Both the position numbers and the translations under genes were made by a program. A DNA stretch of 64,000 nt, taken from positions 64,001 to 128,000 of IMG/VR virus record IMGVR_UViG_3300042013_000056. The stretch is one strand, 5' to 3'. The stretch is from a virus. Below, piece by piece: positions 2,783 through 62,731 of this stretch. The notes beneath the pieces are model-generated. The model did no database searches and was not told the origin of the DNA. It saw only the letters and a list, made by a program, of their open reading frames with translations. Within the stretch, counting starts at the first letter, position 1, and the number at the start of each line of letters is the position of its first letter.

Positions 2783-3474
2783 AATTGATTCTCGGTTGGA
2801 TTTGTATCAATTTTGTTGATACGGTCTTCATCAGCTTTTTTGATCCGTACAACCAGTTGTTCCATTTCAAGGATGTGGTTGTAATCCGAAATCGACAGGA
2901 ACACTTCACCCTGCAAATTAATCAAACTACGCAACGACCCGGTGTAAATCCCATAGAACCGCATCGGACGTGGATACCGTGGTTGATCGTAACCCGGACG
3001 CAGTTCGTGGATCGCCTTGATAGTGATATGTCGCAACAAGACTTCGGTGTCCTGTTCCAACCACCATTCTTTCGGCAGATGCTTCCAGTAGTCTGGGTAC
3101 AATGCTTTCAAATTGGCGGCAATGGCCTTATGGGACTGGTTCAATGCACTATGGTGACGTTTGATGTAAGTGTACGACCGTTTCCACCAGAACATACCGA
3201 TATGACCGATTTCTTCGGTGATATATGGAGACATGATTTTGTTAAAATCAATCTTGTCTTGACCAGAATTGGCATATTCTTGCAGGTTTGCAAAGCGTTT
3301 ACGATCAGCTTCCTTGCGATCAACCACCGCTTGCCTACGTTTTTCATTTTCAATTTCAAGGAGAGAACCAAGCCTGATGTTTTCAACATCGATCACTTTC
3401 AAACACCGCGTAGCTCGACCCGCAATAGTCGAACCAATGACTTTGATAAAACCTTCGGAATGATTCAATTCCAC
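2776..3474 (-). CDS. hypothetical protein
   Basis: 232 aa ORF in operon orientation. Confidence 0.7.
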   Translation of the reverse strand: MELNHSEGFIKVIGSTIAGRATRCLKVIDVENIRLGSLLEIENEKRRQAVVDRKEADRKRFANLQEYANSGQDKIDFNKIMSPYITEEIGHIGMFWWKRSYTYIKRHHSALNQSHKAIAANLKALYPDYWKHLPKEWWLEQDTEVLLRHITIKAIHELRPGYDQPRYPRPMRFYGIYTGSLRSLINLQGEVFLSISDYNHILEMEQLVVRIKKADEDRINKIDTNPTENQFC

Positions 3475-4954
3475 GTTTCCTTCATTTTGGATGGATCAAC
3501 CTGTTTCCAATACGCGTTGTACGCTTTGAAGTAGTCGCTATAGAACAGATCGGCATCATCAGAACCGCAATTGTCCATATAATCGGCCCTTGCCAATGCC
3601 AATTCACTGAACATTTTTTCGACAGTCTTTGGTTCAGGCGTAATGCTCATTTTGTTACCCCAAAGTGATTGTGTAATAGGGAGACGAGCATGGTCGATCT
3701 TCACACTCCCATTTGACGCCAAACCCACGCGTGATCATTGCAGGTTCGAAGTTGGCTCTTGACCAAACAACCCGACTCGAATCAACTCTAATTGGCTTCC
3801 CATCAGATCGTATAAATGATGGTCGAATGTCATCGGTAATCCAAAGATCGATACCCTCACATTTTTGCAGGGATTTCAGTTCATCCTTAATGTGGTTGGC
3901 TGTTACTAATTGCATCATTTGTACTCTTTGTATCGTGGATTGCCACGATGTCTTCGTAAATTTTCTGGCGAGCTTCCAACGATTTGACGTACTCAGTGAT
4001 ATCACCCAATACCATCAAAAGCTGTGGGCCGGATAGTGGCATATTTGGATTAATCAAACCAAGATCAACCCCAGTTTGTGCAATGGATTCCATCAATACA
4101 TTACGTTGATGGATCACATCTTCCAATTTTTCTTGCGTAACGATCATTTAACAGGTCCGGTCGTTTGAGTTTGGTTAAATAACGCTCAATCCAACCGAGT
4201 ACATGTAATTGAAGATCGGTCATGTTGTCGCGTGCCATTAAAACTGGAAAGATTGCGAAAATCGCTTCCTTCATGTAGTTCATTGTGTAGTAATTGTCGA
4301 AATCATAACGAACATAATCATGCGTTGCTGCATCATCGGGCATCGTATGATTCCAAATCATCACAAACACATTGTACAGATGATCGGTTGTCATATCTTT
4401 TGGATACAACATTTTCAATGACGAATTACGCCATTGAAAACTGTGGGCCGGAAGCCCACGACCAAAGCCCTTTACCAGTTCTGTTGGCTTCATCGAATGT
4501 CACTATCTGGGAAACAGGTTTGAGTTGGACTGCTACCTTTTTCACCGCTTTCCGTGATGTAGCAGGTAACTTTATTACGGGTGTCATGCACAACCGCAAA
4601 TACGGTTGAATCATAGGTCACACCTGCATATTGCCGAACTTCTATATCCGCTTCATCGGTTGACTGTTCGGTGTACTTGGTAGTTTCGGCAAAAACGCTA
4701 CCAGACACCGCCAACAGAATCAAAAGAACCCAATATTTCATTGTATCAAATCCTCAGTTACGTTCGAAGAATGCTTGACTTTCAAGGCGAGCTTGGCTGA
4801 ACCAGACTGCACCGTACTGAGTCACCCAGTAAAATTCGGTGGTTGCATCGATCTTGACGCGTTCACCAGCTTGAAACTGATGGACCACTTCATTACGAGC
4901 GTTCTTAATTTCCAGCGATGTGTTGAGAATGATAAAACTGTAATTCACAGACAC
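3465..4954 (-). CDS. run of six small hypothetical genes (3465-~3647, 3655-~3918, 3887-4147, 4101-4493, 4490-4741 with signal peptide, 4754-4954)
   Basis: overlapping or abutting minus-strand ORFs; 4490-4741 begins MKYWVLLILLAVSGSVFA. Confidence 0.6.
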
Positions 4955-5202
4955 CCCATTTCTTTAGGATTTGTTTTTGGAACCCCAGCTTCGATTTGAG
5001 CCGCGACACACTGATTCTGTTCTGTTACAATAGTATTGACCATTTTGATACCACATGTCAACAACAGAATCACAGCAATTGTGCAAATTGTTGGTGCCGA
5101 ACTGATCAAAACTTGACCAGTTGTCGAGTCGCGGAAGCTTTCCCATGATTGGACCACGGATTTCATGCTTTCACATGGGGATTGATCGACCTTCTGTTCC
5201 AT
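4945..5202 (-). CDS. small membrane protein
   Basis: one TM segment then C-x12-C-type tail. Confidence 0.55.
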   Translation of the reverse strand: MEQKVDQSPCESMKSVVQSWESFRDSTTGQVLISSAPTICTIAVILLLTCGIKMVNTIVTEQNQCVAAQIEAGVPKTNPKEMGCL

Positions 5203-5366
5203 TAGTTACACGCCTTTGCTGCTTCGATGGCTGGGGAGCCGTTTTTGACCAGCGACTGAACACAATCTGTTCGAATTCTGGTGGTGTTGAAATTGTACAC
5301 CAGACTCAGAACCAAAATAAACAGTACCGCGTAGATTCCTGCGACCAAATTTGCGTTAGCTTTCAT
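5202..5366 (-). CDS. 54-aa membrane microprotein MKANANLVAGIYAVLFILVLSLVYNFNTTRIRTDCVQSLVKNGSPAIEAAKACN
   Basis: not in ORF track; first gene behind the 5397 promoter; TAATG coupling. Confidence 0.7.
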   Translation of the reverse strand: MKANANLVAGIYAVLFILVLSLVYNFNTTRIRTDCVQSLVKNGSPAIEAAKACN

Positions 5367-5396
5367 TTCGATCTTCCAATTTTGTTTGAGAACAGA

Positions 5397-5428
5397 AGCT
5401 TATCACATCAACCACCAGAAATAAACAG
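5397..5428 (-). promoter_or_regulatory. sigma70-type phage promoter
   Basis: TGTTTATT, 17-bp spacer, TAAGCT. Confidence 0.7.
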
Positions 5429-5487: not shown

Positions 5488-8319
5488 ATGGAACTCAAGA
5501 ATTTTTTTGCACAAGATAGCCAAGGTAATGCACAACCAAATGCAACCTGCTATCTATATGCAGTTGGAACAGAAACCATTGTAACTGGCTTGGTTGATGT
5601 GACTGATACACCATTAGCTAACCCATTCAACAGTGACCCATACGGGCTTATTCAGTTTAAAGCTCCGAATGGAATTTATGATCTAAGAGTTGTATCTGGT
5701 GTTAGAGATTACCGCATTAGAGTTCAATGTAACGATCTTAATGAGTCCATTGCCGCTGCTAAGGCAGAGGCTGACCGCGCGCAAGCGATTGTTGACGGGT
5801 TTGATAATGACACTGCATATATTTCATACCCATTTTCATATGTTACAGGTACATCCACATATGATGTAAGAACGATTAGTGGCGAACAAACAACTACAAC
5901 CAATAACATGGGACTTTGGGTTGAAGGTGCAATCGAATTTGATTATGTGATAAATGATGATTTCACATTTACACTGGGTTCGGTATATCCAAATGGTATT
6001 AGCATGCGAATCCTTAGAGGTACTCGCAAATTCTCTGATATCAGTACCCAATTTGCAACCAGAAGTCAACTTGCTGCATCTGATGGTGCTAGTTTGGTAG
6101 GTACACCAATCGGTTTGGACCTTTCAACTACAACAATTTCAGTATCTAATTTGGCTGCATTACGAGCCGCAACTAAACCTGTCATTGCCGCTGGTAGAAC
6201 ACTATCTGTATGGGTATCCAGTCACACCATTGATAATGATGGTGGTGAAGGTATGTGGTATTGGCAAGGGGATAGCAACGAAGTTGATGATAACGCTTTG
6301 GTTGTGGTTCCAAATGGTGCAACTGTTGGTCGCTGGAAACGTGTATTCTCAGATTTCATTAAACCAGAGTGGTTTGGTGCAACTGGATTAGGATTGGTTG
6401 ATGATTCTACCGCAATTGGTAAGTTTTTTGATGCATGTTTGACCTACAGTGTTAAAGGCCGTGGTAAGCCGGGTGCGAAATACAAAATTTCAACTCAAAT
6501 CAGTAAAACACTGGTACAAAATCAAGTCTTGGATATTGATTGGAATGGTTCTACATTGATCCAAGGTGGAAATAACCTTGTACTCAGTTTACTAAACTCA
6601 GCTAATGGGTTGGTGAAGCCAACAACATCAATTACCGAAACATCGGTCAATCTTGGTGACGGTTCGACAAACACTATTGTCATGCAGATTGTAGCTACTG
6701 CACACCCGTTTACTACGGCTGGTGAAATCGGTAAGATTTTTAGCGATGATATCGTGCCAGATTCGGATGGGTCAAATCAGTTTCGTGGAGAATTCTTCAC
6801 GGTTGGTTCAATCATTGATGCAAATACATTTACCACAACTGGTGTGTTCGATGAAACTTATCTAACTAACCCAAAAGTTGTGAAACCATCAAATGCCAAA
6901 GTAGACTTCTCGAATCTATCTGGTGAATCTGTTTGGGTAGATACTACCACATCCAGCTTTATGAACATCCAAGGGTTTTTGTCGCCAAGACTTCAAAAGT
7001 TGTCTGCGAAAAATATTAACGCAGCTTTCTTGAACCTAACAAGTAACTACAAACCATCCGTACAAGGGATCATTGGTAGAAGCTTGAAGAACCGCCCGGA
7101 CTTAGGTGCCTACGGGTATCTGGTTAATGACAGTGCCGGTTTCTATGGTGATATCTCAAGAATCGATTGTGTATTAGCAAGACACGCATATACAACCACA
7201 ACACCAACCAGCACGATTGCAAATGATGACAAATGGTGGCTTCGTGGTAGAACCATTGGTTCTGTAGTAAGCGACAGTACCGCACAGGGATGCGCAAACG
7301 CATTTGATACACACTCACCAGCTTTGCGTATCACATTCGATAACTGCGTGTCTATAGACGACTTCCGTGGGAATGCTACTGGTGGTGCTGGTATTCAAAT
7401 CAGAGCGAATGATTGTCGAGTGATTGACTGTGATGTGACCAACTCTAAAATTGGTGTTGCGCAGAGCGGTGCAAATAAAACCAGTAATGCGACACTAACA
7501 ATTTCCGGTCTTAGATACAGAGGACCGAACGGTCATATACCAGTTGTGGTAAATGGTAGTGCTACATACGAAACCGTTGTTAACTTTGATGATGGGAACA
7601 TTACCACCATCAACGGTGTTGCATTTGATGTTACCAACGCATACTTGAACGTAACAAACACCAAAGTGTCTATGTCACCAGCAATAAATGGTGCATCGGT
7701 AGTTAAACTAAACGCTGGTGGTCGTCTGGATTGGGACAGTGGTAGTGTTTCAATACTCGCAGGTGTTTCACATAAACTAGTAGAACATGCCGAGACTGAT
7801 ACTATCTGTTACATGGACAATGTTAGAGTTCGTGGTGTTACTGGTAGATTGTCATATCTTTCATCATCAGCAGCACAATATGCAATCCAATCTAGATTCC
7901 GTGGAATGCAACTGGACGCTGCTCTACCGGGTGTGCCATTCCTAGGTGTTGAAGCTACGTTGCCTAAAGTATCGGCTGATTATGTTGTTGGGTTTAACTC
8001 AAGACCTATCGGATATCGCGTGTTCACGTTTGGTACGGCTGGTAACCAAACACTGGATTTGCAATTCACTGGTCATGAAAGTGTGTTTGTTCGCATTGAA
8101 GCCACAATTGCTGGTGTTGTTATTAACTCAATCACACAAGGTGCATTCCCCGGCCAGCGATTGATCATAAACAACCGAAATTCATCCACAAGCAGTTTTG
8201 TAATTGCAAACAACTCTAGTGGACTTCTGTTTATGGGCACATCTGCAACACTTACTGCGGGTAGAGGTATCACACTTGTGTGGGACGGTTCGAACTGGCG
8301 TTCTGCTGACATGCATTAA
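5488..8319 (+). CDS. tailspike / receptor-binding protein 1 (anchor domain, shared head module, beta-helix)
   Basis: 943 aa; N-terminal 80 aa shared with 10333; DGGEGMW...GRWKR...PEWFGA module; beta-helix-like repeats. Confidence 0.85.
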   Translation: MELKNFFAQDSQGNAQPNATCYLYAVGTETIVTGLVDVTDTPLANPFNSDPYGLIQFKAPNGIYDLRVVSGVRDYRIRVQCNDLNESIAAAKAEADRAQAIVDGFDNDTAYISYPFSYVTGTSTYDVRTISGEQTTTTNNMGLWVEGAIEFDYVINDDFTFTLGSVYPNGISMRILRGTRKFSDISTQFATRSQLAASDGASLVGTPIGLDLSTTTISVSNLAALRAATKPVIAAGRTLSVWVSSHTIDNDGGEGMWYWQGDSNEVDDNALVVVPNGATVGRWKRVFSDFIKPEWFGATGLGLVDDSTAIGKFFDACLTYSVKGRGKPGAKYKISTQISKTLVQNQVLDIDWNGSTLIQGGNNLVLSLLNSANGLVKPTTSITETSVNLGDGSTNTIVMQIVATAHPFTTAGEIGKIFSDDIVPDSDGSNQFRGEFFTVGSIIDANTFTTTGVFDETYLTNPKVVKPSNAKVDFSNLSGESVWVDTTTSSFMNIQGFLSPRLQKLSAKNINAAFLNLTSNYKPSVQGIIGRSLKNRPDLGAYGYLVNDSAGFYGDISRIDCVLARHAYTTTTPTSTIANDDKWWLRGRTIGSVVSDSTAQGCANAFDTHSPALRITFDNCVSIDDFRGNATGGAGIQIRANDCRVIDCDVTNSKIGVAQSGANKTSNATLTISGLRYRGPNGHIPVVVNGSATYETVVNFDDGNITTINGVAFDVTNAYLNVTNTKVSMSPAINGASVVKLNAGGRLDWDSGSVSILAGVSHKLVEHAETDTICYMDNVRVRGVTGRLSYLSSSAAQYAIQSRFRGMQLDAALPGVPFLGVEATLPKVSADYVVGFNSRPIGYRVFTFGTAGNQTLDLQFTGHESVFVRIEATIAGVVINSITQGAFPGQRLIINNRNSSTSSFVIANNSSGLLFMGTSATLTAGRGITLVWDGSNWRSADMH

Positions 8320-8380: not shown

Positions 8381-10258
8381 ATGACAATAGGTAAAATTAC
8401 ACAGCTAGTTAATTTGGCCAACACAACTGACCCAACACAAGGTGCTGGGATGGTTTCAAACACAACCGGATTGGATTTATCTACCGCCACCATTTCAATA
8501 TCTAACTTGGCGGCGTTGCGAAGCACAACAAAACCAACCGTCAAATCTGGTAGAACACTAACTGCTTGGGTTGCTGGGCATACCACAGATAATGATGGTG
8601 GTGAGGGTATGTGGTGTTGGCATGGTAACAGTAACGAAGTTGATGACAATGCGATGGTTGTTGCTCCGTCTGGTGCTACTGTGGGTCGTTGGAAACGCGT
8701 TGCTGCTGATAGCATTAGACCAGAGTATTTTGGTGCGTTTGGTGACTTTAACTGGACTACACAGACTGGTACAATTTGTACTGTAAATCTACAGAAAATG
8801 TTTAACTGGGCAAATAAGACCGGTGCGGAAATCCACCCAATGGCTGGTAAGAAGTATCTGACCGATACAATTTACTTGTTCTATGACGTGGTATTAAATC
8901 CGGCATGGCCCGGTAGAGGTGGGCGTACCAAGATTGTAGGTCAGGGTAATGGACATGCTACTGGTGCGTTGGAAGACCCCGGCTGTGCGTTTGTTCATGT
9001 CAACGGATCAACCGGACCACTACTGTATGTCAAGGGTATATTCTCAATTGAAAACCCAACTGGTATGGCTGGTTATTTCAGTTTAGAGGACTTCAACCTT
9101 GTTGGTGGTAATCTGAGTTCTGATGTTTTGAAAATTCAGGGTAGTCAAGGTAGCATTTTCCTTAAAAACTATACTGTAAAAGTTCAAAACCCAGCGGGTA
9201 ATGGTATTACAGAATCTACCACTTGGGAAACTATTCATCAGAATGGATTGATTCGTGGTGGTGCAACTGGTTTGGGTAACTGGACTGGTACTCTACTTGA
9301 TATTAAAACCGATGGTACGGCTGGTCAAACCAACATGAAGGTATATATCAACGTAGACTGCTATCGTGGTGGTAACGGTATTCGTATCGGTAGACGTGGA
9401 TCGGTAGAAGGTACATTTGGTCCATTGGTGTTCATTGGTGGGCAAACTTCTAACTCTGATCAGCATGGACTTTGGTTGGACGGTGGTGTTATTGCATTCT
9501 CGTCAATTGGTCAGCAGTTTGAGGGTGGTCAGAAAAACGCAATTAAGATTGATCGTGAATATGCACCGGGACTTCTATCAACTGACCTTGTTCGAAACAT
9601 TAAATTTGAACGCCCATATATTACTGGATGTGGGTTGATTGAGGATGGTACACCAGATAGTTATGCAATTCACGTTGCTAATGGTGATGGTATCTATTTC
9701 GAGGGAATTACATACAACAATATGGGTAACGGCATGGCTGTTAACCAAGAGTTTGTAACAAACTTCAAGAATATTAGTCCGTTGGTTCGTACTGTTCGTA
9801 CATATGGAGCTACTAGTGGTATCGGCAACTATTTCTACGGTGCAGCACAAGCAATTCAGAAATTTGAATGTCGTGACCCTATCTTTAACCAGAACCCAAG
9901 TGTTCAATTTAATGATGCGGCAATCGAGGCATTCAGTCGATATGATGCTGGTGGTTTTATTAGTAATGCTGGGAATACTGTACCAAGCATTTCTTTGGGT
10001 GGGACATATGGTTCTATGCCAGTGCATCAGCTTAACTTTAACAACCCAACACCACTAACAGTTACTAACATTACTGGTGGTCGATCTAGACAACATCTGT
10101 TGATCACATTCTCAAACACCGTTACAACTATTGCAAGTAACTCGAATATCAGATTGGTTGGTGGGGCTGCATTTACACCTACATCACAATATTCGACACT
10201 AACATTGCATTATGATGGTGTTGTATGGCGAGAAGTTACCAGATCACAAAACGCATAA
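8381..10258 (+). CDS. tailspike / receptor-binding protein 2 (putative depolymerase)
   Basis: 625 aa; residues ~30-120 nearly identical to ~210-300 of protein 1; beta-helix-like body. Confidence 0.85.
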   Translation: MTIGKITQLVNLANTTDPTQGAGMVSNTTGLDLSTATISISNLAALRSTTKPTVKSGRTLTAWVAGHTTDNDGGEGMWCWHGNSNEVDDNAMVVAPSGATVGRWKRVAADSIRPEYFGAFGDFNWTTQTGTICTVNLQKMFNWANKTGAEIHPMAGKKYLTDTIYLFYDVVLNPAWPGRGGRTKIVGQGNGHATGALEDPGCAFVHVNGSTGPLLYVKGIFSIENPTGMAGYFSLEDFNLVGGNLSSDVLKIQGSQGSIFLKNYTVKVQNPAGNGITESTTWETIHQNGLIRGGATGLGNWTGTLLDIKTDGTAGQTNMKVYINVDCYRGGNGIRIGRRGSVEGTFGPLVFIGGQTSNSDQHGLWLDGGVIAFSSIGQQFEGGQKNAIKIDREYAPGLLSTDLVRNIKFERPYITGCGLIEDGTPDSYAIHVANGDGIYFEGITYNNMGNGMAVNQEFVTNFKNISPLVRTVRTYGATSGIGNYFYGAAQAIQKFECRDPIFNQNPSVQFNDAAIEAFSRYDAGGFISNAGNTVPSISLGGTYGSMPVHQLNFNNPTPLTVTNITGGRSRQHLLITFSNTVTTIASNSNIRLVGGAAFTPTSQYSTLTLHYDGVVWREVTRSQNA

Positions 10259-25822: not shown

Positions 25823-25842
25823 TTTTGCTTCCTTTGAGTTCA

Positions 25843-45006: not shown

Positions 45007-45061
45007 ATTACCATCAGTTTTAAGTATTCGTGGGGAATCCACTGATTATTTACCAGAATAC

Positions 45062-47534: not shown

Positions 47535-47831
47535 TTACCAAAGCTCTTTGATTTTGTTTAAAAGGGTTCGCCATATCGGCAAGTTAAGGTCGGGTTCTGG
47601 TTCTGGAATTTCGTCATCATCTGGCGTCTTTTCGATGTTCTCTAACAAGAACTTGAATGCCTGAGCCAACATTTTATCGGTTACATCATCAGACCAAAGA
47701 CGTTCACCGAGAATGACCCAATCGGTTTTAAATCTACCATCTTGGGTCACTTCAAAGTTGGTCACCGCTACCTGTTGCCCGCTCAAGTCGAACAACAGGT
47801 ATTGGCTAGGGGCCGCAGTCGGCTCGATCAA
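47535..47831 (-). CDS. probable gp40 / head vertex assembly chaperone homolog
   Basis: T4 synteny uvsX-40-41; sequence support weak. Confidence 0.45.
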   Translation of the reverse strand: MIEPTAAPSQYLLFDLSGQQVAVTNFEVTQDGRFKTDWVILGERLWSDDVTDKMLAQAFKFLLENIEKTPDDDEIPEPEPDLNLPIWRTLLNKIKELW

Positions 47832-48913
47832 TCCTCAACACCTTTAAGGAAGGTATCAAACTCGGCTTCGTGGTTTGTATCCATTTCGGTTGCTTTCAAC
47901 ATGTACGTGTTTTCAACGTAGTCACGGAACGACTTGCGTTTCATGATTTCCATCAAGTAGTTGTTGGTCGCTTCCAGCTCTGCTCTACGGAACTTCTTAC
48001 CGTCGTACAGGATTTCGCCGGTATCCGGGTTGATCATTTGATAGAACCCTTTGGTTGGGCTAATCAACGAACCTTCTTCCAGTGCCAGTTCAAAGATGCC
48101 AGACATTGCCTGAACACCACCCTCAAACGAAACGTGAATCGGGAACTTGGACTTTTCAACCACGAATCGCGATTTCTCGATGATCAGTGTGAACTTGAAG
48201 CCGGTCAGCTCTTGGCCGTCTTTGTCCTGTGCCTTGGAAATAAACAGTACGGTGTTCGAAGACAACATACCACCCTGACCACCACCCATGATTTGTTTCG
48301 GGAACATGCCTTGTTCGTTGTATGTGTGGTTAATCACAATGCAAGGAATGTTCTTTGCTTGGAAGTGCGGGGTGATGATACGGAACATTGATTTCAGTTG
48401 CTTCGCACGGGTCATGTCCGCAGCACTGTTTTCATTCAATGCGTCATCAACTTCTTTCTTCGAAGCCAAGTTACCGATGGAATCCACCAAGAAAACAACT
48501 TTTTCGTTACGCTTGATTTGTTCAAGCAAGTTCGCGAATTCGAATTTCAGTTGTTCAATGTTGTAAATCGGAATGTGCATCAAACGGGATGGATCAATAC
48601 CGAACGACTTCAAGTATTCCGGGGTAATACCAAATTCGGAGTCAAGCAATACGCACATGGCGTCTTTGTGCTTCCGAAGATATGCAGCGACCAACAGCAA
48701 TGCGAAGTTGGTTTTAAAGTGCTTCGACTCTGCCGCGATGGACAGAATACCCGATGGAAGACCACCGTTGATTTTACCACTCAATGCCACGTTCAGGATC
48801 GGGACGGATGTTGGGGCAAAATCTTTTTCGTTAAACAGTGTCGAGTCGGACAACACCGCAACATCATCACGGGTTGTCGCTTTCAACAGTCTTTGCATCA
48901 AAGCTGGATTCAT
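47828..48913 (-). CDS. uvsX: RecA-like recombinase UvsX
   Basis: AAESKHFKT, DSEFG, DSIGNLASKKE, KSRF; start revised to MNPALM. Confidence 0.95.
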   Translation of the reverse strand: MNPALMQRLLKATTRDDVAVLSDSTLFNEKDFAPTSVPILNVALSGKINGGLPSGILSIAAESKHFKTNFALLLVAAYLRKHKDAMCVLLDSEFGITPEYLKSFGIDPSRLMHIPIYNIEQLKFEFANLLEQIKRNEKVVFLVDSIGNLASKKEVDDALNENSAADMTRAKQLKSMFRIITPHFQAKNIPCIVINHTYNEQGMFPKQIMGGGQGGMLSSNTVLFISKAQDKDGQELTGFKFTLIIEKSRFVVEKSKFPIHVSFEGGVQAMSGIFELALEEGSLISPTKGFYQMINPDTGEILYDGKKFRRAELEATNNYLMEIMKRKSFRDYVENTYMLKATEMDTNHEAEFDTFLKGVED

Positions 48914-48929
48914 CTTTTTCTCAGTTCTC

Positions 48930-51455
48930 TTACATAAAATCGTCAAGTGAGATTTCGTCTTTGTACTTCCAACCAATTGCATCGCAAATAGTTGCCAAAG
49001 GCTTGATGAATGATTTATCAAACATCGTCTCACGGTCCATAAACCGCAGAATATTATCTGGGTCCATTTCGTCTGGAATTCGCATACCAGATTTGAACGC
49101 AAATCGCTCACAGCCGTAACTATTCGGCTCTCTCAAAAGGATACTGGCAATCTTCTCGCCTTCTTTGATCATGTCCACGCCGTCGATCTTTCGAGCCACA
49201 CGGTTGAACGCCAAAACACCTTTGATATGACCCGGACATCTGAACCCCGGCTGCATGTCACCCATGGTGTACTTGGCTAAGTTGTTCGCGGAAGACACAC
49301 CGGCAATTTCCCGGTAGTCGATCACACCATAACGCTTGTGTACGTCATCGATCAGGGTCAGAAGCTGTGCTTGTTGTCCGTCAAGGATCAAATCAATCGC
49401 CTCTTTCAGACCATCCCGCGCAAGTTGTGGTGTACTCGCTCGCTGGGTTTCAATACCCATGATCTTTGTTTCTGGTTCTTTGTAGCGGTAACCTTCCATG
49501 TCCCACACTGCCAACGCATAACGTTTCTTGGCAATGAAGAATCCAGTTGAAGAAATCGCTTCTCGTTTCATGTACATCACAGACGCGTAATGGTTCATGT
49601 ACGTTGCAAGTTCTGCATACCACTTGTTCAACATCGGTTGAATCTTTTCTTCGGCAAACCGATCCAGCATGGTTACCGTTGCATCTGTACCTTTGTTTGC
49701 ATAGAACTTATCAACAAAGTCTTCGAAACATACATAACAAGAGTCAGTATCAATTGCCACAACACGATCTTTAGGCTTGCCACCGATAGCCTTGTTCAAC
49801 ATTTCATTGAAGTGTTTAGCCGACCATTTGATAATCACTTGACCCGTGAGAGTTACAGCTTCTGCGTTTCGAATGTCGTAGTATCGGAAATACGCGTTAC
49901 CCAATGCACCATAAGCCGAGTTGATCGCGATCTTAGCCGCTTTCTGCAACAGGTCGTACTTACGAACATCATCGTCATTGCCAGCATGCTTGGCATCTTT
50001 CATCAGGTTCTTGAAAATTTTACGCTGATTAAAGACATGCTCAACTACGGTTGGGATCACACCACGGATATCTTTGCGGTATCTTGTACCGTTAGCACCG
50101 ATGGAATAAGTTTCACCATTCATGTTGACTTTGCCAGCAACGTAATCATCAACATCAGCGTTGTAAAGCTTATCAACCAGTGTCTCTGGGCTGATATTTA
50201 GCTGACGGATAATACCCGGATACAGCGATTCCAAGTCGAATGACATAATCCAGCGGAAGTATCCAACCAATGGGTCTTTTACAAACGCACCTTCAAATGG
50301 CACAGCTTGGCTATTCCGTTTCATCGGAACAACAACTTTTTGCTTCTTCAAGTGATTGAAGATGATTGAATCCCACTGTTTGATTGGTGAATATCCATCC
50401 TCGAACGTCATTCCTGCGTCATAGGTCATGTACATCATCAGATCAATCAATAGCAACTTCTCATTGATTCGTTTAACCAAATCAACGTCGTAGATGTTGT
50501 AATCCACGTATTTCTGTGGGTCGTTGATTGCCAGATCAACCAGCGAACCTTCAAAGTCCAACTTGTCGTCTTGAATCTCGACTTTCGCGATGTAGCCCAA
50601 GCGGAAGTTTGATCGAGGCTCCAATACGAACTTTTTGTACAACTCAATGTAGTCAAGTTGTGCAATACCAACCAATTTGACGAACTGTCTTTGACCGTTC
50701 TGGTTATCCTGCATGGTTTTGATATCAGTACGACCATACGGACTCAATGAGTCAGCAGCGGCTTCACCCAGAACCATCGTAATGCGTTTGTGCATGTACG
50801 GGATGTCAAAGCTGTTCGAATACCAACCAGTAACGATGTCCGGGAAGCATTCACGCCAGTCTTGAATAAATTCAACCAACATGTTCTTTTCAGTTGCGAA
50901 ATACTTGTAACGAACACGTTTCAGAAGCGATTCTTTGAGTGTCGATTCTTCTTTGGTCCACTTCCGAGTTGAATACACGGTGTAGATATCGTCAATGTTG
51001 TCGTACAGGGTAATCGCGTCAACTTCCCACTTCGCAATCTCAGGCGATGGGAATCCATCAGGTCTTGCAGTGGTTGGGTCGTTTGGGTCGGTGTAAGTCG
51101 CGGCGTGAACTTCGATGTCGAGGTTCTTGATCCGAACAAGCTTGGTGTTTGGTGTCTGCTTGCCGAACTGATCAGCAATGAACGCCAAAGTGAAGTTGTC
51201 CATACCATTTACAACACCGTTGGAAACGGCCTTGGTGTCGCGTATAAACGCCGATGCGTCATACATGTTGTCGAAGTGCATGGGCATCTGGGAAACGCCG
51301 TAGATGTCCTTGTAGCCTGTTTCTTTGCTGGTTGGGACAAATAGCGTAGGGGAATAAGTGTGTTTCTCTCTGAAAGGCTGTCCGTTTTCATCATATCCAC
51401 GAACCAGCATGTGTTGGCCTAATCGGTCAACAGCGGTGAAAAATTTCTTTGACAA
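48930..51455 (-). CDS. 43: family B DNA polymerase (gp43), uninterrupted
   Basis: DIE, SFDLESLYP, KIAINSAYG, IDTDS, KKRY; TTG start after AGGA. Confidence 0.97.
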   Translation of the reverse strand: MSKKFFTAVDRLGQHMLVRGYDENGQPFREKHTYSPTLFVPTSKETGYKDIYGVSQMPMHFDNMYDASAFIRDTKAVSNGVVNGMDNFTLAFIADQFGKQTPNTKLVRIKNLDIEVHAATYTDPNDPTTARPDGFPSPEIAKWEVDAITLYDNIDDIYTVYSTRKWTKEESTLKESLLKRVRYKYFATEKNMLVEFIQDWRECFPDIVTGWYSNSFDIPYMHKRITMVLGEAAADSLSPYGRTDIKTMQDNQNGQRQFVKLVGIAQLDYIELYKKFVLEPRSNFRLGYIAKVEIQDDKLDFEGSLVDLAINDPQKYVDYNIYDVDLVKRINEKLLLIDLMMYMTYDAGMTFEDGYSPIKQWDSIIFNHLKKQKVVVPMKRNSQAVPFEGAFVKDPLVGYFRWIMSFDLESLYPGIIRQLNISPETLVDKLYNADVDDYVAGKVNMNGETYSIGANGTRYRKDIRGVIPTVVEHVFNQRKIFKNLMKDAKHAGNDDDVRKYDLLQKAAKIAINSAYGALGNAYFRYYDIRNAEAVTLTGQVIIKWSAKHFNEMLNKAIGGKPKDRVVAIDTDSCYVCFEDFVDKFYANKGTDATVTMLDRFAEEKIQPMLNKWYAELATYMNHYASVMYMKREAISSTGFFIAKKRYALAVWDMEGYRYKEPETKIMGIETQRASTPQLARDGLKEAIDLILDGQQAQLLTLIDDVHKRYGVIDYREIAGVSSANNLAKYTMGDMQPGFRCPGHIKGVLAFNRVARKIDGVDMIKEGEKIASILLREPNSYGCERFAFKSGMRIPDEMDPDNILRFMDRETMFDKSFIKPLATICDAIGWKYKDEISLDDFM

Positions 51456-53993: not shown

Positions 53994-54308
53994 TTAGTTA
54001 CTCACAATGTAGCCAGATTCAGTCAAAACGTCGTGGGTGACGCTTTCAAGGACCAGATCAAGCGGTTGTTGATTCGTGGATTGACGCAGTGGACCAAAAC
54101 CTTTCAGTTGAATTACAACAAGGTTTTTATTCAGTTCGCGGAGGGTTTCGAGGTATCGGGTTTTGATTTTTGCATCAATGTCTTGATACAGGGCCAGTCG
54201 GGCCGGTTGTGCGATCAAACTAAATTTCTTCGCTACATCAGCGTCAATCAGGGAAACCCAAGCATTACGCACGTTTACATCATGTTCAACAAGATCACTA
54301 CGATTCAT
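53994..54308 (-). CDS. rpbA: RNA polymerase-binding protein RpbA-like
   Basis: RxAWV...PARxAxYxxID matches recalled T4 RpbA; T4 position upstream of gene 45. Confidence 0.65.
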   Translation of the reverse strand: MNRSDLVEHDVNVRNAWVSLIDADVAKKFSLIAQPARLALYQDIDAKIKTRYLETLRELNKNLVVIQLKGFGPLRQSTNQQPLDLVLESVTHDVLTESGYIVSN

Positions 54309-54378: not shown

Positions 54379-56088
54379 TTAAACAGAAATTTCGATTTCG
54401 GAAAATTTACCGGTCATTCGAACGTCAATGGTTCTATCAAACTCCATAGACTCGATCTTTTCACTGTGACTGATCACATAGATTGAGTCATTGATTTGAT
54501 CCAGAATCTCAACCAAGGCTTCGATTCCGTCTGTGTCGCTTGAGCCGTCCATGACTTCATCCAGTACCAGCACGTTCACGCTACCACCAGAAATCAGTTT
54601 CACCAGATCACGCCATGCGAACAGAATCGCGATGTCAATCCGGTACTTCTGACCTTCGGAAAAACTGTTGTACGTGAAGTTTTCCATACCACGGGTCTTG
54701 ACACTCTCACTGAATTCTGCATCCAGCTCGAACGTGTACATCGCACCCATCTTGGTCAGGTACTCATTGATCAGTTTGTTGATCACAGGAATGTACTGAC
54801 CGATGATCACGGTTTTAACACCAGAATCCTTGAGAATGGCATTGATTGCCGCATAGCAATATTTGTCATTCATCAGTTCCAACCGATGTTCACTGACCTT
54901 GTTCAGCATTTGTTCCAGTTTAATCAGTTGTTGGCTCACGTCTTTGAACTCTTTCTGCTCAAGGGCAGCAATCGAATTCTGTGTCATTTGAATTGCGGAT
55001 TCATAATGACGAACGCTTGATTCATCAACGGCTTTCTGACTCTGGACTTCTTGAATCTTGGTCTTGATTTTCTGATCGCGTGTGCGGTCTACTTCTTTGG
55101 CGTTGATCCCGGTGACCTTTTCATCCAGTCGCAGCCCAACTTCGTCGATACTCATATCCAGTTCGAAGGTTTTCTTCGATTTGAAGGTTGTATCAATCTT
55201 CTGGGTACACACCGGACAGTTATCGTTGTTGGTCAGGAAGTGCAACATCTTTTTGTGTTCTTCGATCTTGGCTTGCAGTTGACCACGTTCCGCATACAAG
55301 GCCGGTAAGGCTGTCTGGTATGAACCATCGCTCAACATAGGTGCTAGCTTACCCAAGACATTAGTGCCCGCCAGAACGTCTGCTAGAGCGCGATCCAGCT
55401 TATGTGCAAGGTCATCCAGCTTGACTTTTTCAGCCTTGATCAATTCGTCAACTTTACCCTTGTCATCAGCCTGTTGTTTTTGCAACATCGACTGTTTTTG
55501 GGTCAGCAGTTGAATGTTATGTTCTGCTTGAACAATATCGCTCTGACAGATTGCATGTCGTTCTTTGTTCTTTGCAGCCATGATGCTAAGCAGTTGGATA
55601 TCCAACAGGTCTTCGATCACTTCACGGCGTTTCGGTGCTGTCAACTGCATGAACGGTGTAAACCCGGCTGTACCAAGAACCACAATTTGCTTGAATGATT
55701 TCAAACTCATTTGGAGAATCTTGTTCTCAAGGTAGTCTTGGTAATCACCGGTACTGGCATCTTCTTCGATCAGTTCAGAATCCTTGCGGATTTCAAATAC
55801 TTTCGGGCCGATGCCGCGTGTTACTTCATATGGAACACCATCGACTTCAAACTCAAGCTTGACCACCATACCCTTTTTGTTAGTGGTGTTCACCAACTGG
55901 GGCATGTTGATGCTTCGATATGGTTTACCGAACATCGCGTAAGTCAAGGCTTCAATCAGGATCGTTGATTTACCTGTACCATTCTTGCCGGTAATCAGGT
56001 TCTTTTTATGTGTGTCAAGCTCAATGATGATTGGAACATTACCAACGCTCATTAGATTCTTGATCGTAATCTTTTTCAGATTGATCAC
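54379..56088 (-). CDS. 46: recombination endonuclease, SMC-like subunit (gp46)
   Basis: GKNGTGKST, CPVC zinc hook, FSEGQK, LDEVMD, SH. Confidence 0.95.
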   Translation of the reverse strand: MINLKKITIKNLMSVGNVPIIIELDTHKKNLITGKNGTGKSTILIEALTYAMFGKPYRSINMPQLVNTTNKKGMVVKLEFEVDGVPYEVTRGIGPKVFEIRKDSELIEEDASTGDYQDYLENKILQMSLKSFKQIVVLGTAGFTPFMQLTAPKRREVIEDLLDIQLLSIMAAKNKERHAICQSDIVQAEHNIQLLTQKQSMLQKQQADDKGKVDELIKAEKVKLDDLAHKLDRALADVLAGTNVLGKLAPMLSDGSYQTALPALYAERGQLQAKIEEHKKMLHFLTNNDNCPVCTQKIDTTFKSKKTFELDMSIDEVGLRLDEKVTGINAKEVDRTRDQKIKTKIQEVQSQKAVDESSVRHYESAIQMTQNSIAALEQKEFKDVSQQLIKLEQMLNKVSEHRLELMNDKYCYAAINAILKDSGVKTVIIGQYIPVINKLINEYLTKMGAMYTFELDAEFSESVKTRGMENFTYNSFSEGQKYRIDIAILFAWRDLVKLISGGSVNVLVLDEVMDGSSDTDGIEALVEILDQINDSIYVISHSEKIESMEFDRTIDVRMTGKFSEIEISV

Positions 56089-57726: not shown

Positions 57727-58002
57727 TCAAGCGCTACTGGATTTCTTGTAAATCTCAAAGTTCTTATAGAACTCGTCGATGATCATATCAAACGTACCAA
57801 AGAACTCTTTGGTTTTTGCATCAAAGGTTCTAAGCCGCATGTTCTGTGTCTCGATGGATAGCGTCAACACCTGAGCCAGCAATCGGTTTGATCCAACCAC
57901 TACACGCTCATAAGTGCCGTCATCCCGTTTGATATATTCCAAAACGTCTCTATCAAACTCGAACCAGTATGGAGAATCAATTCTCCCATTTGTATTAATC
58001 AT
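57727..58002 (-). CDS. hypothetical protein
   Basis: 91 aa ORF. Confidence 0.65.
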   Translation of the reverse strand: MINTNGRIDSPYWFEFDRDVLEYIKRDDGTYERVVVGSNRLLAQVLTLSIETQNMRLRTFDAKTKEFFGTFDMIIDEFYKNFEIYKKSSSA

Positions 58003-59771: not shown

Positions 59772-60029
59772 TTACCATCTTGAATATGCAAGTTCACATG
59801 ATTGCGACCCTGCAACTAAGCGTTGATTTTTAATCAACACACAAATATCGGCTCTGGTGAACTTGTACGGCAAGATAGGTGATGACATATGGTCAGGTCG
59901 GTGGACCCACATTTCAACCATGTCAGAATCAACCGTATGCCACGACAGTTCACGCACACTACCATTGATAAGAAACATACCATTACAACGTCGCAACAGT
60001 ATGTCTATCAGTTCATTCATCGGGATCAT
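59772..60029 (-). CDS. hypothetical protein
   Basis: ATGA coupling to the endonuclease gene. Confidence 0.6.
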   Translation of the reverse strand: MIPMNELIDILLRRCNGMFLINGSVRELSWHTVDSDMVEMWVHRPDHMSSPILPYKFTRADICVLIKNQRLVAGSQSCELAYSRW

Positions 60030-60694
60030 TGAATTACCATCTTTCGCCCAAGTACCCACCCAGACGGCTCATATTCACCGAGTGTTGCTTTCGGTATCTT
60101 TTTATTGCCTAGGGTTGGGTGTGTTATCCAACAAGTTCCATATTGACTATTATCGGATGGCTTAGTATGTCTCGCACGCGCTTTTTCAGAAATCAACCGT
60201 TTGGTTTCTTCACGATGTGTTTTACCAGTCCAGTCATAGTCAATCTTCTGCGTATCACCAACATGGCGGAGTTTCTTTGCTTCTCGGAATCTTTCTTTAT
60301 TTGCGTCCGTGCTAGACCTAGCTCTGATCACTTTGGTCACAGCACCCCGATACTCAGGGTTTTCCCAATTCCGTTTAGCAATCTCCGATGACTGCCCACC
60401 TTCACCACCAAGCTTTAAATTCAAGCATTGTGGATCGGTTAACGTTTCTGGGTTGACTAGCTCTGATTCTCTCAAAGCCAATTCATCCCTTGATTCATGA
60501 TATTCCAAAATCTCAACACTATGGTTTTCCAGCCCATGTTTTCGAATCGAATATCGCAATCGTTTACCAGACCCAACATAACCATCGTTTAAATCGTCGG
60601 TTGAGTGCATACCGATGTAATATCGGTTTGATACAAGACATGTGGTCTTGTAGATGTAGTGAAATTTTCGTTTCTCTACTCGAACGTAAGTCAT
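60026..60694 (-). mobile_element. free-standing GIY-YIG homing endonuclease (Seg-like) with NUMOD3-like motif
   Basis: HYIYKTT...YYIGMH...YVGSG...LESEL; GKTHREETKRLIS; in the tRNA region like T4 segB. Confidence 0.88.
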
Positions 60695-60921: not shown

Positions 60922-60964
60922 ATCAAGCGTTGTTTGTGCTGCGTTGTTGCTGTGACGTGAAACA

Positions 60965-60996
60965 ATATTAGCACCAGTTCTGTTCGAAATAAACAT
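60965..60996 (-). promoter_or_regulatory. tRNA-cluster promoter AATGTTTATT-N17-TAATAT
   Basis: 21-bp identity AATGTTTATTTCGAACAGAAC with the promoter at 46043. Confidence 0.75.
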
Positions 60997-61352
60997 TCAT
61001 TCGTACAATTTTAGTGCTTCCTGCAATTCTCTTACCAGAGCCTCGGCTTTGTTAGCCCGCAAAGCCCACTGATGTCTGCTTAGAACCGTGCATGGAAGGC
61101 ATTCTGTAGGGCACCCCACTTCAAGCATTCTACCCGGCACACCAGCTTCTGGGTGAGGGTTCACCGACATCGGGAACCCGCATTTGTAACAGATCAATCT
61201 AGGATGCTGCCTACAAGGTCACCCACGCCGTCTAAGATCGACCACCATACAAACGCATCAACTGCATCACCGGCAACCTGTGCGGCGTTCACGTTGGACG
61301 TGGTAGGCTTCTGTTTGACCTTCGGTTCTTCTTTCTTTTCAGGTTCTGTCAT
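60997..61352 (-). CDS. two small genes (60997-61197 Cys-rich; 61194-61352, 52 aa, not in track)
   Basis: TTGA and ATGA couplings. Confidence 0.6.
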
Positions 61353-61855
61353 TTGCCTGTCCACGATGGGTCAATGTCATCGCCGTATTCTTCAACGATC
61401 ACGATCTTTCTGTCTGATATAAAGGACGTTGGCCCAAGCTCGATTTTCATATCACCGATGTCATACGACAGGGTGATGTGTGGAATGAAGCTAGGATGAT
61501 CCCACGTACCGCCGTGTTCTTTCATCAACTCACTATGACGGTTTGATAGAAAGCTACTTTCATATGCCAGTACCAATGCGTTCTTCCCGGATGCCGTCTT
61601 GAACACCTTTAAATCAAACTGATTTGTGTCTGAGGTTGGTGTGGTCAGGTACATCCCGAATGGAACATAATTTGGTAGGGGTTTACGACTATACAGCAAT
61701 GTGCTATGGAATTTTGCCGGATCAAGTCGATTCGGAAGATTCAGCATGTCTTGCATGATCATCAAATCACGCACCGTTAATGGATCAAAACGCACCCCGG
61801 CGTATGTTCCATGAATCCCTTCCATCAGGAAGGGAAGCATATCTCTAAAATTCAA
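61349..61855 (-). CDS. acb1: 2H phosphoesterase, anti-CBASS nuclease Acb1 (T4 gp57B-like)
   Basis: HSTLLYSR and PHITLSY HxT motifs; follows recalled T4 57B along its length. Confidence 0.88.
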   Translation of the reverse strand: MNFRDMLPFLMEGIHGTYAGVRFDPLTVRDLMIMQDMLNLPNRLDPAKFHSTLLYSRKPLPNYVPFGMYLTTPTSDTNQFDLKVFKTASGKNALVLAYESSFLSNRHSELMKEHGGTWDHPSFIPHITLSYDIGDMKIELGPTSFISDRKIVIVEEYGDDIDPSWTGK

Positions 61856-62731
61856 TTATTTCTTCCTGCCGACCCAACGACCTTCGGAATCCATAACAAG
61901 CGGTTCAAGTACAGGCATCGAATCGATGATTAAAGCTGTACCGATGATTGGGCGTTTGATGTTTACGTTGTTGTAGTTGAAAGCCAATGCATCGTCATCG
62001 ACCAGACAACCGGTCTGTAAGCCCCAGTACAAGCCTGTAGGATTACGCCAGTAGCTAACCTTAAAGGTTTCGTGATAGTGGCCCTGAACAGCGTTCATGC
62101 CCATCTGCTGGCTAAGTTGAATGACATCGCTCGACTTACCGTGATGGAAGTAGCAATTCTGACCATTTGGCAGTTTGATAGTAAGTTCAAATGACCATTT
62201 CCAGTTCGGACCCACACCAAGAACTTCGTTGTACGATTTGATGTAGTGTTTTGGAATTCCGTTGGTTTTTGCTTTACGCCATACCAGTGAGCCGTGGTTT
62301 GATTCAATGATGTCCATTTTCGGGAACATTTGATACAATTCAGCGATCACTGCTTGGCTTTGACGCAATTCATCACCGGCACTTGGCAGATCAGGGTCAT
62401 GGTCGTGGAAGCTCAACGCGTGTTTGTCAAGTTCATCGCCCATTGAGATAATTCGAGTCGGCTTGTATTTCTTTTTCAGATAAGCCAGAAACTCCAACAG
62501 GTCAGGGTGATGATACGGAATGTGCATATCACTGATGACTAAAATTCGATCATTGTTTTCCGTCGCTGCATCCAGCTTGCGGATGGCGAATTTTGTTCCA
62601 ACGGGTTTACCGAACTCTTTGCGTAGAAAGTCCGAGACTGTTGACTTTGGTTGCCCTACAGTTTCAGAAATACTGCGCCACGATAAGTTCTGTTTGGCTA
62701 ATTCAACAGCCTTCGATTTCCATTCTTGCAT
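61856..62731 (-). CDS. metallophosphoesterase with N-terminal HTH
   Basis: SWRSISETVGQPKSTVSD HTH; SDMH, GDELD, SNH, HHG, GHYH. Confidence 0.8.
   Translation of the reverse strand: MQEWKSKAVELAKQNLSWRSISETVGQPKSTVSDFLRKEFGKPVGTKFAIRKLDAATENNDRILVISDMHIPYHHPDLLEFLAYLKKKYKPTRIISMGDELDKHALSFHDHDPDLPSAGDELRQSQAVIAELYQMFPKMDIIESNHGSLVWRKAKTNGIPKHYIKSYNEVLGVGPNWKWSFELTIKLPNGQNCYFHHGKSSDVIQLSQQMGMNAVQGHYHETFKVSYWRNPTGLYWGLQTGCLVDDDALAFNYNNVNIKRPIIGTALIIDSMPVLEPLVMDSEGRWVGRKK

Follow-up and report, generated by a model that had tools for sequence, protein, structure and literature searches.

Genome context and definition of the word

The window analysed here is a 64,000-nucleotide stretch of viral DNA (IMG/VR record IMGVR_UViG_3300042013_000056), cut from a virus contig of 182,859 bp (44.9% GC), of which it spans bases 64001-128000. 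Its DNA polymerase shares 77% identity with those of the T4-like Pseudomonas phages Astolliot and Milchi, and the T4 gene order is kept in the window (topoisomerase, exonuclease, primase, helicase, UvsX, polymerase, RegA, clamp loader, clamp, gp46/47, gp55). Scattered within and between these genes is a short DNA word, first described as TTSTATCAA, which is the subject of this study. Nearer relatives were found in IMG/VR and are denoted G001 (85% polymerase identity, a partial contig), G002 and G003 (78%), and G004 and G005 (76%, fragments); the aligned parts of G001 are 81% identical in nucleotide sequence to the contig containing the window, which we call the own contig and whose coordinates are marked G000. 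Open reading frames (ORFs) were called by a codon-usage score, a rough procedure that covered 82% of the genome.

A pattern search found 38 exact matches to TTSTATCAA in the window, 23 on the + strand and 15 on the - strand. A preliminary description of this DNA had listed 38 sites, all of which exist, with 37 coordinates exact and one (62329) off by one, the true site being 62330-62338. Its estimate of about 20-fold enrichment over some two expected copies agrees with dinucleotide-preserving shuffles of the window (2.02 +/- 1.39 expected, maximum 6); the other nulls used were Markov models, permutation of synonymous codons within each gene and codon-order shuffles. The whole contig (183 kb) carries 101 matches, 50 on the + and 51 on the - strand, made up of 72 copies of TTGTATCAA and 29 of TTCTATCAA. 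The enrichment therefore extends through the genome and to both orientations, as had also been proposed. Taken with respect to the coding strand, the word exceeds the coding null 4-7 fold in either orientation in the own contig, G001, G002 and G003, and 2-4 fold in Astolliot and Milchi; a raw imbalance between orientations vanished once it was set against this null.

The excess persists under codon-preserving nulls, a check that the preliminary description had called for. In the window ORFs, which contain 28 of the 38 matches, 500 synonymous-codon shuffles gave 4.5 +/- 1.95 (maximum 11), and genome-wide the ORFs contain 51 matches, compared with 9.4 +/- 2.6 under within-gene permutation of synonymous codons and 4.5 +/- 2.1 under shuffling of codon order. 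All gene classes were enriched, including the late + strand genes (18 vs 5.0) and the replication block (38 vs 6.4).

Counts of single-substitution variants define the word as T-T-N-B-A-T-C-A-A, in which positions 3 and 4 prefer G, then T, and the other bases are strict; one-mismatch neighbours at the strict positions do not exceed expectation. Outside the early region described below, the base following TTGTATCAA is A or T in 39 of 42 copies, adding W at position 10. The sharper word is TT-N-B-ATCAA-W, with TTGYATCAAW as its best form, and it is borne by sequences such as TTGTATCAAA and also TTGCATCAAA. The C variant TTGCATCAA is likewise enriched (35 vs 8.8 expected) and brings the window total to 53 sites, while TTCTATCAA is a weaker variant. 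The original pattern captured a real word, but its S mixes this weaker variant with promoter -10 elements: some reverse-strand matches outside the window (TTGATAGAAT) are the extended -10 of early promoters and a separate source of some TTCTATCAA counts.

Selection on the dispersed copies

The word is kept by selection on DNA, at about one site per kb and on both strands. Of 49 sites outside the early region, 27 are unchanged in G001, against 23% of flanking 9-mers (p = 1.6e-6); compared with G002, 11 of 30 sites are identical, against 10.7% of flanking 9-mers. No excess of positional conservation was found relative to Astolliot and Milchi. Within the word, third-codon positions are 82% conserved in G001 vs 63% in the flanks (p = 4e-5), and 74-83% conserved in G002 vs 52% in the flanks. 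Amino-acid change in the word's codons relative to the relatives is not in excess; the word is written where the protein allows. The suggestion in the preliminary description that this is no peptide motif is borne out by the codon nulls and the third-position conservation, which place the selection at the level of DNA. Neither outcome that the description had named as refuting, loss of the excess under such nulls or a lack of synonymous conservation, was observed.

A word without a function of its own, produced incidentally by mutation bias, by codon or dipeptide preferences, or by recombination that scattered pieces of promoter cassettes, is largely excluded, and we regard it as very improbable. 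T4-like promoter cassettes are indeed mobile (PMC2839356, PMC4122927), and the synonymous null lies above the codon-order null (9.4 vs 4.5), so that proteins evidently tolerate the word easily. But the excess over the codon-preserving nulls is 5-6 fold, conservation exceeds that of the flanks both at synonymous positions and for whole sites, in-frame sites occur in conserved core genes, and no promoter sequence flanks the dispersed copies. Cassette fragments as the source of these copies were rejected, since the sites differ from those of the relatives by point changes only, with no insertions.

Sites within ORFs are distributed uniformly along the genes, and their spacing is random-like, with a coefficient of variation of gap length of 1.02 (Poisson-like) and no regular period. 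Site density is 2-6 times higher in the prereplicative blocks than in the late genes. In the own contig, G001 and G002, the dispersed copies have no TANNNT at 17 +/- 1 in either orientation, and their flanks are unconserved beyond the W at position 10. With no -10 element at promoter distance in any of these three genomes, such copies are not promoters, and their identification as sigma-70 promoters was rejected.

Early promoters carrying the word

The early region lies outside the window, at 38-57 kb of the genome, and consists of about 50 small minus-strand ORFs, most of them with a promoter of their own. Most of these promoters end in a shared leader, ACACCAAC, and 23 of the approximately 25 early sigma-70 promoters defined by this leader carry the word, at three fixed registers. 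Type A promoters consist of an A/T tract, TTSTATCAAACC, 1-2 nt, TTGACA, 17 bp, and TAGAAT or CATAAT, which places the word at -49 to -41, immediately before the -35 hexamer; beyond that hexamer there is often another partial copy, inverted. Type B promoters have TTGATAGAAT as their extended -10. Type C promoters contain the hairpin ATAGGGG-TTGTATCAAACC-TACAACCCC followed by TACAAT, and TTGTAT serves as the -35, so that the word occupies -35 to -26; in the flipped form the 7-nt hairpin centre is inverted and the word is on the other strand at -27 to -19. The hairpin promoters (GGGGTTGTA-7 nt-TACAACCCC, then the -10) are found at G000 40.7-54.3 kb (loci L043). Their 7-nt centre occurs in either orientation behind otherwise identical flanks, which suggests inversion between the 9-bp arms, or template switching.

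In Astolliot and Milchi the hairpin promoters keep the stem and the -35 TTGTAT, while the loops vary and mostly lack ATCAA. As the core promoter is kept without ATCAA, the word is an addition to it. This fixed part of the word in early-promoter architecture, and its change together with the promoters between relatives, were absent from the preliminary description.

The word also touches other promoter classes. It occupies the spacer of two middle-type promoters, one being that of gene 55 (-strand, AATGTTTA-tat-TTGATACAA-acactgg-TAGAAT), where it had already been noticed; in several further middle-type promoters it overlaps the upstream edge of AATGTTTA, and two late promoters have the word abutting. 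The word is a fourth element beside these promoter classes. The AATGTTTA promoters themselves form a second class of about 35 minus-strand copies genome-wide, reading (T)TCTGTTYC-AATGTTTA, ~19 nt, (TGn)TAKAAT, all co-directional with prereplicative genes, e.g., upstream of gene 55 and gp46. They could be middle-type (activator-dependent) promoters in a phage with AsiA and no recognisable MotA, or a T4-early-like class with a GTTTA -35. The AsiA anti-sigma factor is encoded at window 38838-39131 (-strand; PF09010, E=1e-15), and its gene adjoins that of the gene 52-like topoisomerase subunit, with nothing between, where T4 has motA.

Given this setting, the word might be the box of a MotA-like co-activator acting with AsiA in sigma appropriation, the dispersed copies being non-productive sites or an activator sink; the hairpin promoters would in that case need an activator or be dual promoters. 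AsiA is present, while MotA is undetectable, and no gene fills the place that motA holds in T4, between asiA and gene 52; the asymmetric 10-mer resembles the monomer-bound MotA box; and in the forward hairpin promoters the 10-mer lies at -35 to -26, leaving 13 bp (own) or 12 bp (G002) to the -10, a distance that fits the T4 rule of 12 +/- 1 bp (PMC2988021). Elsewhere, however, the word is flipped, or stands at -49 above a perfect TTGACA -35, and a different box, AATGTTTA, holds the upstream position in the ~35 conserved prereplicative promoters. The dispersed copies have no -10 and no orientation preference, and selection for ~70 non-promoter copies would be left unexplained. A MotA-like box is, in our assessment, distinctly unlikely. 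The registers differ but all overlap polymerase contacts, which an operator accommodates better than an activator site, for which a single geometry is needed.

Clade restriction and co-variation of promoter and dispersed copies

The word is restricted to this phage clade. TTGYATCAAW occurs 101 times in the own contig (1 for the reversed-pattern control), 28 times in Astolliot (3) and 23 times in Milchi (2), compared with single figures in Boevelstad, an unrelated P. poae phage of 44.9% GC (1, control 1), in the Vibrio T4-like phage D480 (4, control 4) and in T4 (3, control 4). T4 has no comparable two-strand word, its top words being terminator hairpins and one-strand promoter pieces with at most 20 copies. 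The phage density of 0.585 sites/kb is about 100 times the 0.003-0.007 sites/kb expected by base composition in a host of 58-66% GC.

Within the clade, the promoter copies and the dispersed copies change together. Both classes are mostly of the T form in the own contig and in G001. TTGCATCAA is the most enriched 9-mer of G002 and G003 (98 vs 8.7 and 85 vs 8.2 expected, respectively); their promoter stems read GGGGTTGCA, and the C form prevails in the promoters as well as among the dispersed copies. Two more contigs of the C type agree with this (C16:T7 and C10:T2 in ~15-20 kb). This joint T/C switch argues for one reader of both classes.

The reader could in principle be a host component (the alpha or sigma subunit of RNA polymerase, or a nucleoid or regulatory protein), with the dispersed copies drawing it onto phage DNA. 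Early promoters must function with unmodified host polymerase, and the word lies at UP or extended -35 contact positions; on its reverse strand TTGATA matches the -35 consensus at 5 of 6 positions; the core ATCAA is both the IHF core and an FNR/Anr half-site; and the T/C differences between lineages could mirror different hosts. Nevertheless, the relatives' promoters work without ATCAA, and the strict C7, T1 and T2 with a loose G3 misfit reading by sigma region 4 or A/T-tract reading by alpha. The IHF 3' element (WATCAA, 4 bp, TTR) is not enriched, following 13 of 263 words vs 53 of all 1300 ATCAA, and the full FNR/Anr palindrome TTGAT-N4-ATCAA is rare, occurring 3 times in 183 kb with no excess over other spacings. 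The identity of the word with IHF or Anr/FNR sites was accordingly rejected. Because these sites are unenriched, and because Boevelstad, which shares host species and GC content, carries a single copy, a general host factor is improbable as the reader.

Search for the reader protein

Of ~30-45 genes common to the own contig and G002 and/or G003 and absent from Astolliot and Milchi, about 20 were scanned with Pfam, and no clear DNA-binding domain was found save one, an HTH_23 domain fused to a phage metallophosphoesterase (phrog_221; window 61856-62731, -strand); in all, ~40 proteins were scanned with Pfam or PHROGs. The fusion is found only in motif-rich genomes of the clade. The protein is ~70% identical to proteins on many 85-107 kb contigs and absent from Astolliot and Milchi, and its gene looks horizontally acquired. 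The family is widespread (3151 homologues, many in Autographiviridae), and Nitrincola phage 1M3-16, with a 61%-identical homologue, has only 7 sites in 82 kb; the metallophosphoesterase is thus not supported as the reader.

Two other proteins are candidates. The first (G000 28071-28802, -strand; L042:8071-8802) is a basic protein of 243 amino acids preceded by a late-type promoter, GATAAATAA. It is clade-restricted (21 clusters among 5.8 billion proteins) and carries a nearly invariant AT-hook, KRxRGRPKG, with one homologue having five tandem AT-hooks, and a putative strand-helix-helix segment resembling ribbon-helix-helix. It has no Pfam match, its profile matches are weak (NikR E=0.17, HMG-I/Y E=0.25), no informative relatives were gained by searching 1.8 billion representatives with a profile, and the AlphaFold2 monomer model has a pLDDT of 59. 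The putative recognition strand differs between the T-type and C-type lineages: it reads KVNLNAF in the own and nearer homologues, including that on the contig carrying P0128, and KIGIHIF, KITIHID or KINVNLF in C-type genomes. The second candidate (G000 38536-39057, -strand; L042:18536-19057), a basic protein of 173 amino acids encoded at the edge of the early-gene array, is fast-evolving with only 8 homologue clusters known. Its C-terminus resembles by eye a winged helix-turn-helix, and its atlas scores of 0.81-0.84 toward viral helix-turn-helix (HTH) clusters serve as a lead only.

A proposed operator-like site for a clade-specific protein

With moderate confidence, we interpret TT-N-B-ATCAA-W as an operator-like, double-stranded recognition site of one clade-specific DNA-binding protein. 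The reader would most likely be phage-encoded and contact the asymmetric 10-bp site as a monomer or small unit. Bound at the promoter registers, it would gate the access of RNA polymerase, and we infer that the effect would be mainly repression, i.e., a timed shut-off of early promoters. The ~60-100 further intragenic copies per genome, in either orientation, would load the same protein along the whole chromosome, where they may serve as roadblocks or silencers that work in either orientation, or as a coat by which the phage marks itself.

More tentatively, this suggests a lytic T4-like lineage with unmodified DNA in which a clade-specific reader of TTGYATCAAW (~100-140 sites per genome) both shuts early promoters and coats or silences the chromosome independently of orientation. 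Such a system could possibly represent stoperator-like global control evolved independently in Straboviridae. The cultured relatives are predicted to be virulent, and native nanopore data of Milchi gave no modification motif and no methyltransferase (PMC11780129).

Several points weigh against the operator interpretation. A pure early-gene silencer needs no excess in late genes, which are also enriched (18 vs 5.0). The orientation independence is unlike stoperators, the only well-studied dispersed-operator system. The fixed promoter geometry could stem from common descent of mobile promoter cassettes and not from function, and the co-variation rests on essentially one phylogenetic split. Finally, Pfam searches of the genome for MotA (MotA_activ, MotCF), HU, HTH_3 and sigma-70 region 4 were empty and no binding protein was identified, while the evidence for both reader candidates is weak.

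The preliminary description had proposed a genome-wide site for a DNA-binding protein acting in genome organisation, recombination, packaging or shielding. Genome-wide, two-strand selection at the DNA level stands; a bound protein and any of these roles are hypothetical. A site for DNA transactions (a hotspot or loading site of recombination-dependent replication, a packaging word, a Chi-like protective signal or a site-specific nickase target) would account for a genome-wide, two-strand, Poisson-like distribution that includes late genes and looks like a density signal on a circularly permuted genome. It also has a precedent in the dispersed nick-associated word WACTRTGAC of other Pseudomonas phages (PMC11780129), and the clade-restricted HTH-metallophosphoesterase of the motif-rich genomes would suit it. 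It leaves unexplained, however, the fixed placement in early promoters and the joint T/C switch, and sites are 2-6 times denser in prereplicative blocks than in late genes. The genome encodes a gp2-type DNA end protector, known nick words occupy a single strand, and the phosphoesterase belongs to a widespread family, with few sites in Nitrincola phage 1M3-16. In Milchi no modification motif was seen, and the same study reports motif-associated strand breaks for another phage only (PMC11780129). We consider a DNA-transaction site unlikely, since the role in promoter architecture and the joint change between relatives argue for transcription control rather than packaging or recombination.

Comparison with known systems

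Present at 23 of ~25 early promoters and in ~70 dispersed copies, the word has its nearest known counterpart in the operator and stoperator sites of Cluster A mycobacteriophages, read by the L5 gp71-type repressor (PMC9283540). These too are short asymmetric words, there read by a monomer, with copies at early promoters and many dispersed genome-wide, and they vary between lineages. However, stoperators are 13-mers in 20-30 copies, located in short intergenic gaps in one orientation relative to transcription, and serve lysogenic immunity in temperate siphoviruses (PMC9283540), whereas the word described here is 9-10 bp long, has at least 100 copies, is mostly intragenic and in both orientations, and belongs to a T4-like phage with predicted-virulent cultured relatives. 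The features of a temperate repressor were not seen: there is no HTH_3 match, and the replication and late-transcription genes are T4-like, although integrase and lysogeny genes were not searched for. With orientation, intergenic location and temperate repressor all differing, the likeness to stoperators is one of mechanism and not of membership.

The promoter(early) stem-loop (PeSL) cassettes of T4-like phages (PMC2839356, PMC4122927) are likewise repeated combinations of promoter and stem-loop between small early ORFs, and the hairpin promoters at 40.7-54.3 kb are of this kind; the dispersed sites are not. PeSLs are whole intergenic cassettes of 50-70 bp, whereas here only a 10-bp sub-module recurs within genes, and a term search of PMC2839356 gave no mention of intragenic copies. 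The T4 MotA box (PMC2988021) resembles the word in being an asymmetric box of 9-10 bp in an AsiA-encoding phage, with an equal distance to the -10 in one promoter class. It differs in that no MotA homologue was found here, the word has several registers and orientations, and most copies lie outside promoters; MotA-box geometry (centre near -30, 12 +/- 1 bp to the -10) is seen only in the forward hairpin promoters. WACTRTGAC of the Pseudomonas phages Rembedalsseter and the tf group (PMC11780129) is also a dispersed, lineage-conserved 9-mer that extends into coding regions, but its ~13 copies all lie on one strand and are linked to strand breaks, while the word here is on both strands and about ten times commoner. 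Nick-associated words of the tf, Rembedalsseter and T5 type are confined to one strand, in contrast to the 50 + / 51 - found here.

TF1 of phage SPO1 is a phage-encoded protein whose preferred sites overlap early promoters; here the Pfam search found no HU/TF1-type gene. DNA uptake sequences (DUS), uptake signal sequences (USS) and Chi are hyper-abundant short words that occur in all reading frames under selection on density, their readers being machines of recombination or uptake. The abundance, the use of all frames and the selection are seen here as well, and the promoter linkage is foreign to the Chi and uptake families; neither DUS nor Chi is known to act in promoters, and Chi works in one polarity.

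T4-type phages are a classic model of timed gene expression, yet how T4 shuts off its early promoters is unsolved, and the shut-off persists without AsiA (PMC2988021). If the operator interpretation is true, the system would offer a concrete handle on this problem. Identifying the reader of the word would uncover either a novel global regulator of T4-like development or a novel means of self-marking an unmodified phage chromosome. The word is kept about once per kb even through essential genes and is present in almost every early promoter, so it is usable as a clade signature in metagenomes and is a constraint to respect in recoding or engineering these phages.

Sites and other promoter elements in the window

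All 53 sites found by pattern search in the window are listed in Table 1, together with the AATGTTTA-class 8-mers of the window and examples of late promoters.

Table 1. Copies of the word, AATGTTTA-class 8-mers and late promoters (window coordinates unless marked G000; the last column gives the state of the site in relatives)
Element	Position	Strand	Location	Relatives
TTGTATCAA	2802..2810	+	in ORF 2776-3474(-); inverted partial copy after	
TTGTATCAA	4741..4749	+	between ORFs	
TTCTATCAA	5429..5437	+	12 nt upstream of late-type promoter CTAAATAT of + gene 5488-8319	
TTGCATCAA	6815..6823	-	in ORF 5488-8319(+)	
TTCTATCAA	9573..9581	+	in ORF 8381-10258(+)	
TTCTATCAA	14941..14949	+	intergenic, past T-run terminator	
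TTGTATCAA	15013..15021	-	intergenic, inverted, 72 nt from 14941	
TTGCATCAA	18677..18685	-	in ORF 18469-18918(-)	
TTGTATCAA	18708..18716	+	in ORF 18469-18918(-)	same in G001
TTCTATCAA	18949..18957	-	intergenic	same in G001
TTGTATCAA	20287..20295	-	in ORF 20059-20388(-)	same in G001
TTGCATCAA	20736..20744	+	between called ORFs	
TTGTATCAA	20965..20973	-	in ORF 20927-21403(-)	
TTGTATCAA	21303..21311	-	in ORF 20927-21403(-)	
TTGTATCAA	22037..22045	+	in ORF 21858-22154(-)	
TTGCATCAA	23851..23859	+	in ORF 23702-24622(-)	same in G001
TTGTATCAA	24068..24076	-	in ORF 23702-24622(-)	same in G001
TTGTATCAA	24487..24495	+	in ORF 23702-24622(-)	same in G001
TTGCATCAA	25600..25608	+	in ORF 25505-25843(-)	same in G001
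TTGTATCAA	25945..25953	-	intergenic	
TTCTATCAA	26462..26470	+	in ORF 26019-26624(-)	TTGTATCAA in G001, Astolliot, Milchi
TTGTATCAA	27116..27124	+	in ORF 27086-27367(-)	
TTGCATCAA	27693..27701	+	in ORF 27427-28848(-)	same in G002
TTGTATCAA	30329..30337	+	directly past stop of ORF 30338-31834(-), beside terminator hairpin	same in G001
TTGTATCAA	31979..31987	+	in ORF 31812-32930(-)	same in G001, G002
TTGTATCAA	33499..33507	+	between called ORFs	
TTGTATCAA	33905..33913	-	in ORF 33702-34763(-)	same in G001; TTCTATCAA variant in G002
TTGCATCAA	34887..34895	+	in ORF 34767-35138(-); 2 nt ahead of copy at 34898	
TTGTATCAA	34898..34906	+	in ORF 34767-35138(-)	
TTGCATCAA	36056..36064	-	in ORF 35422-36291(-)	same in G001
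TTGTATCAA	37394..37402	-	in RNA ligase 1 gene 36278-37426(-)	same in G001
TTCTATCAA	37819..37827	-	in ORF 37752-38135(-)	same in Astolliot, Milchi
TTGCATCAA	38704..38712	+	in cell-wall hydrolase gene 38156-38827(-)	
TTGTATCAA	39643..39651	+	in topoisomerase subunit gene 39176-40474(-)	same in G001, G002
TTGTATCAA	39904..39912	+	in topoisomerase subunit gene 39176-40474(-)	same in G001
TTGCATCAA	40530..40538	+	in topoisomerase large-subunit gene 40471-42297(-)	same in G002
TTGTATCAA	40762..40770	-	in topoisomerase large-subunit gene 40471-42297(-)	
TTGTATCAA	43113..43121	+	in MazG-like gene 42997-43560(-)	
TTGCATCAA	43871..43879	+	in primase gene 43557-44612(-)	same in G002
TTGTATCAA	44706..44714	+	in ORF 44629-45042(-)	same in G001
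TTCTATCAA	44809..44817	+	in ORF 44629-45042(-)	same in G001
TTCTATCAA	45089..45097	+	between called ORFs	same in G001
TTGCATCAA	46802..46810	+	in replicative helicase gene 46116-47534(-)	same in G001, G002
TTCTATCAA	48038..48046	-	in UvsX/RecA-like gene 47828-49111(-)	same in G001, G002
TTGCATCAA	48893..48901	+	in UvsX/RecA-like gene 47828-49111(-)	same in G001, G002
TTGCATCAA	54170..54178	+	in ORF 53994-54308(-)	
TTCTATCAA	54432..54440	+	in gp46-like (SbcC-like) gene 54379-56088(-)	
TTGTATCAA	55188..55196	+	in gp46-like gene 54379-56088(-)	same in G001
TTGTATCAA	57652..57660	+	gene 55 promoter spacer	same in G001
TTGCATCAA	57816..57824	+	in ORF 57727-58002(-)	
TTGTATCAA	60628..60636	-	in ORF 60026-60694(-)	
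TTCTATCAA	61543..61551	-	in ORF 61349-61855(-)	same in G001
TTGTATCAA	62330..62338	-	in HTH-metallophosphoesterase gene 61856-62731(-)	same in G001, G002
AATGTTTA-class 8-mer	18475	-		
AATGTTTA-class 8-mer	19489	-		
AATGTTTA-class 8-mer	25868	-		
AATGTTTA-class 8-mer	28860	-		
AATGTTTA-class 8-mer	33043	-		
AATGTTTA-class 8-mer	36516	-		
AATGTTTA-class 8-mer	42347	-		
AATGTTTA-class 8-mer	46068	-		
AATGTTTA-class 8-mer	51521	-		
AATGTTTA-class 8-mer	54373	-		
AATGTTTA-class 8-mer	57664	-		
AATGTTTA-class 8-mer	60990	-		
Late promoter	5450		upstream of + gene	
Late promoter	8350		upstream of + gene	
Late promoter	10300		upstream of + gene	
Late promoter	G000 166.9 kb		upstream of + gene	
Late promoter	G000 177.6 kb		upstream of + gene	
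Late promoter	G000 178.5 kb		upstream of + gene	

The late promoters read (C/T)TAAATA, and the full T4 form, TATAAATA, has only 6 exact copies in the genome. A perfect palindrome, GGGCCAATTGGCCC, with A and T runs at its sides, occurs in 9 genome copies, e.g., at window ~19500 (AAAGGGCCAATTGGCCCTTTTTT), and is probably a shared bidirectional terminator.

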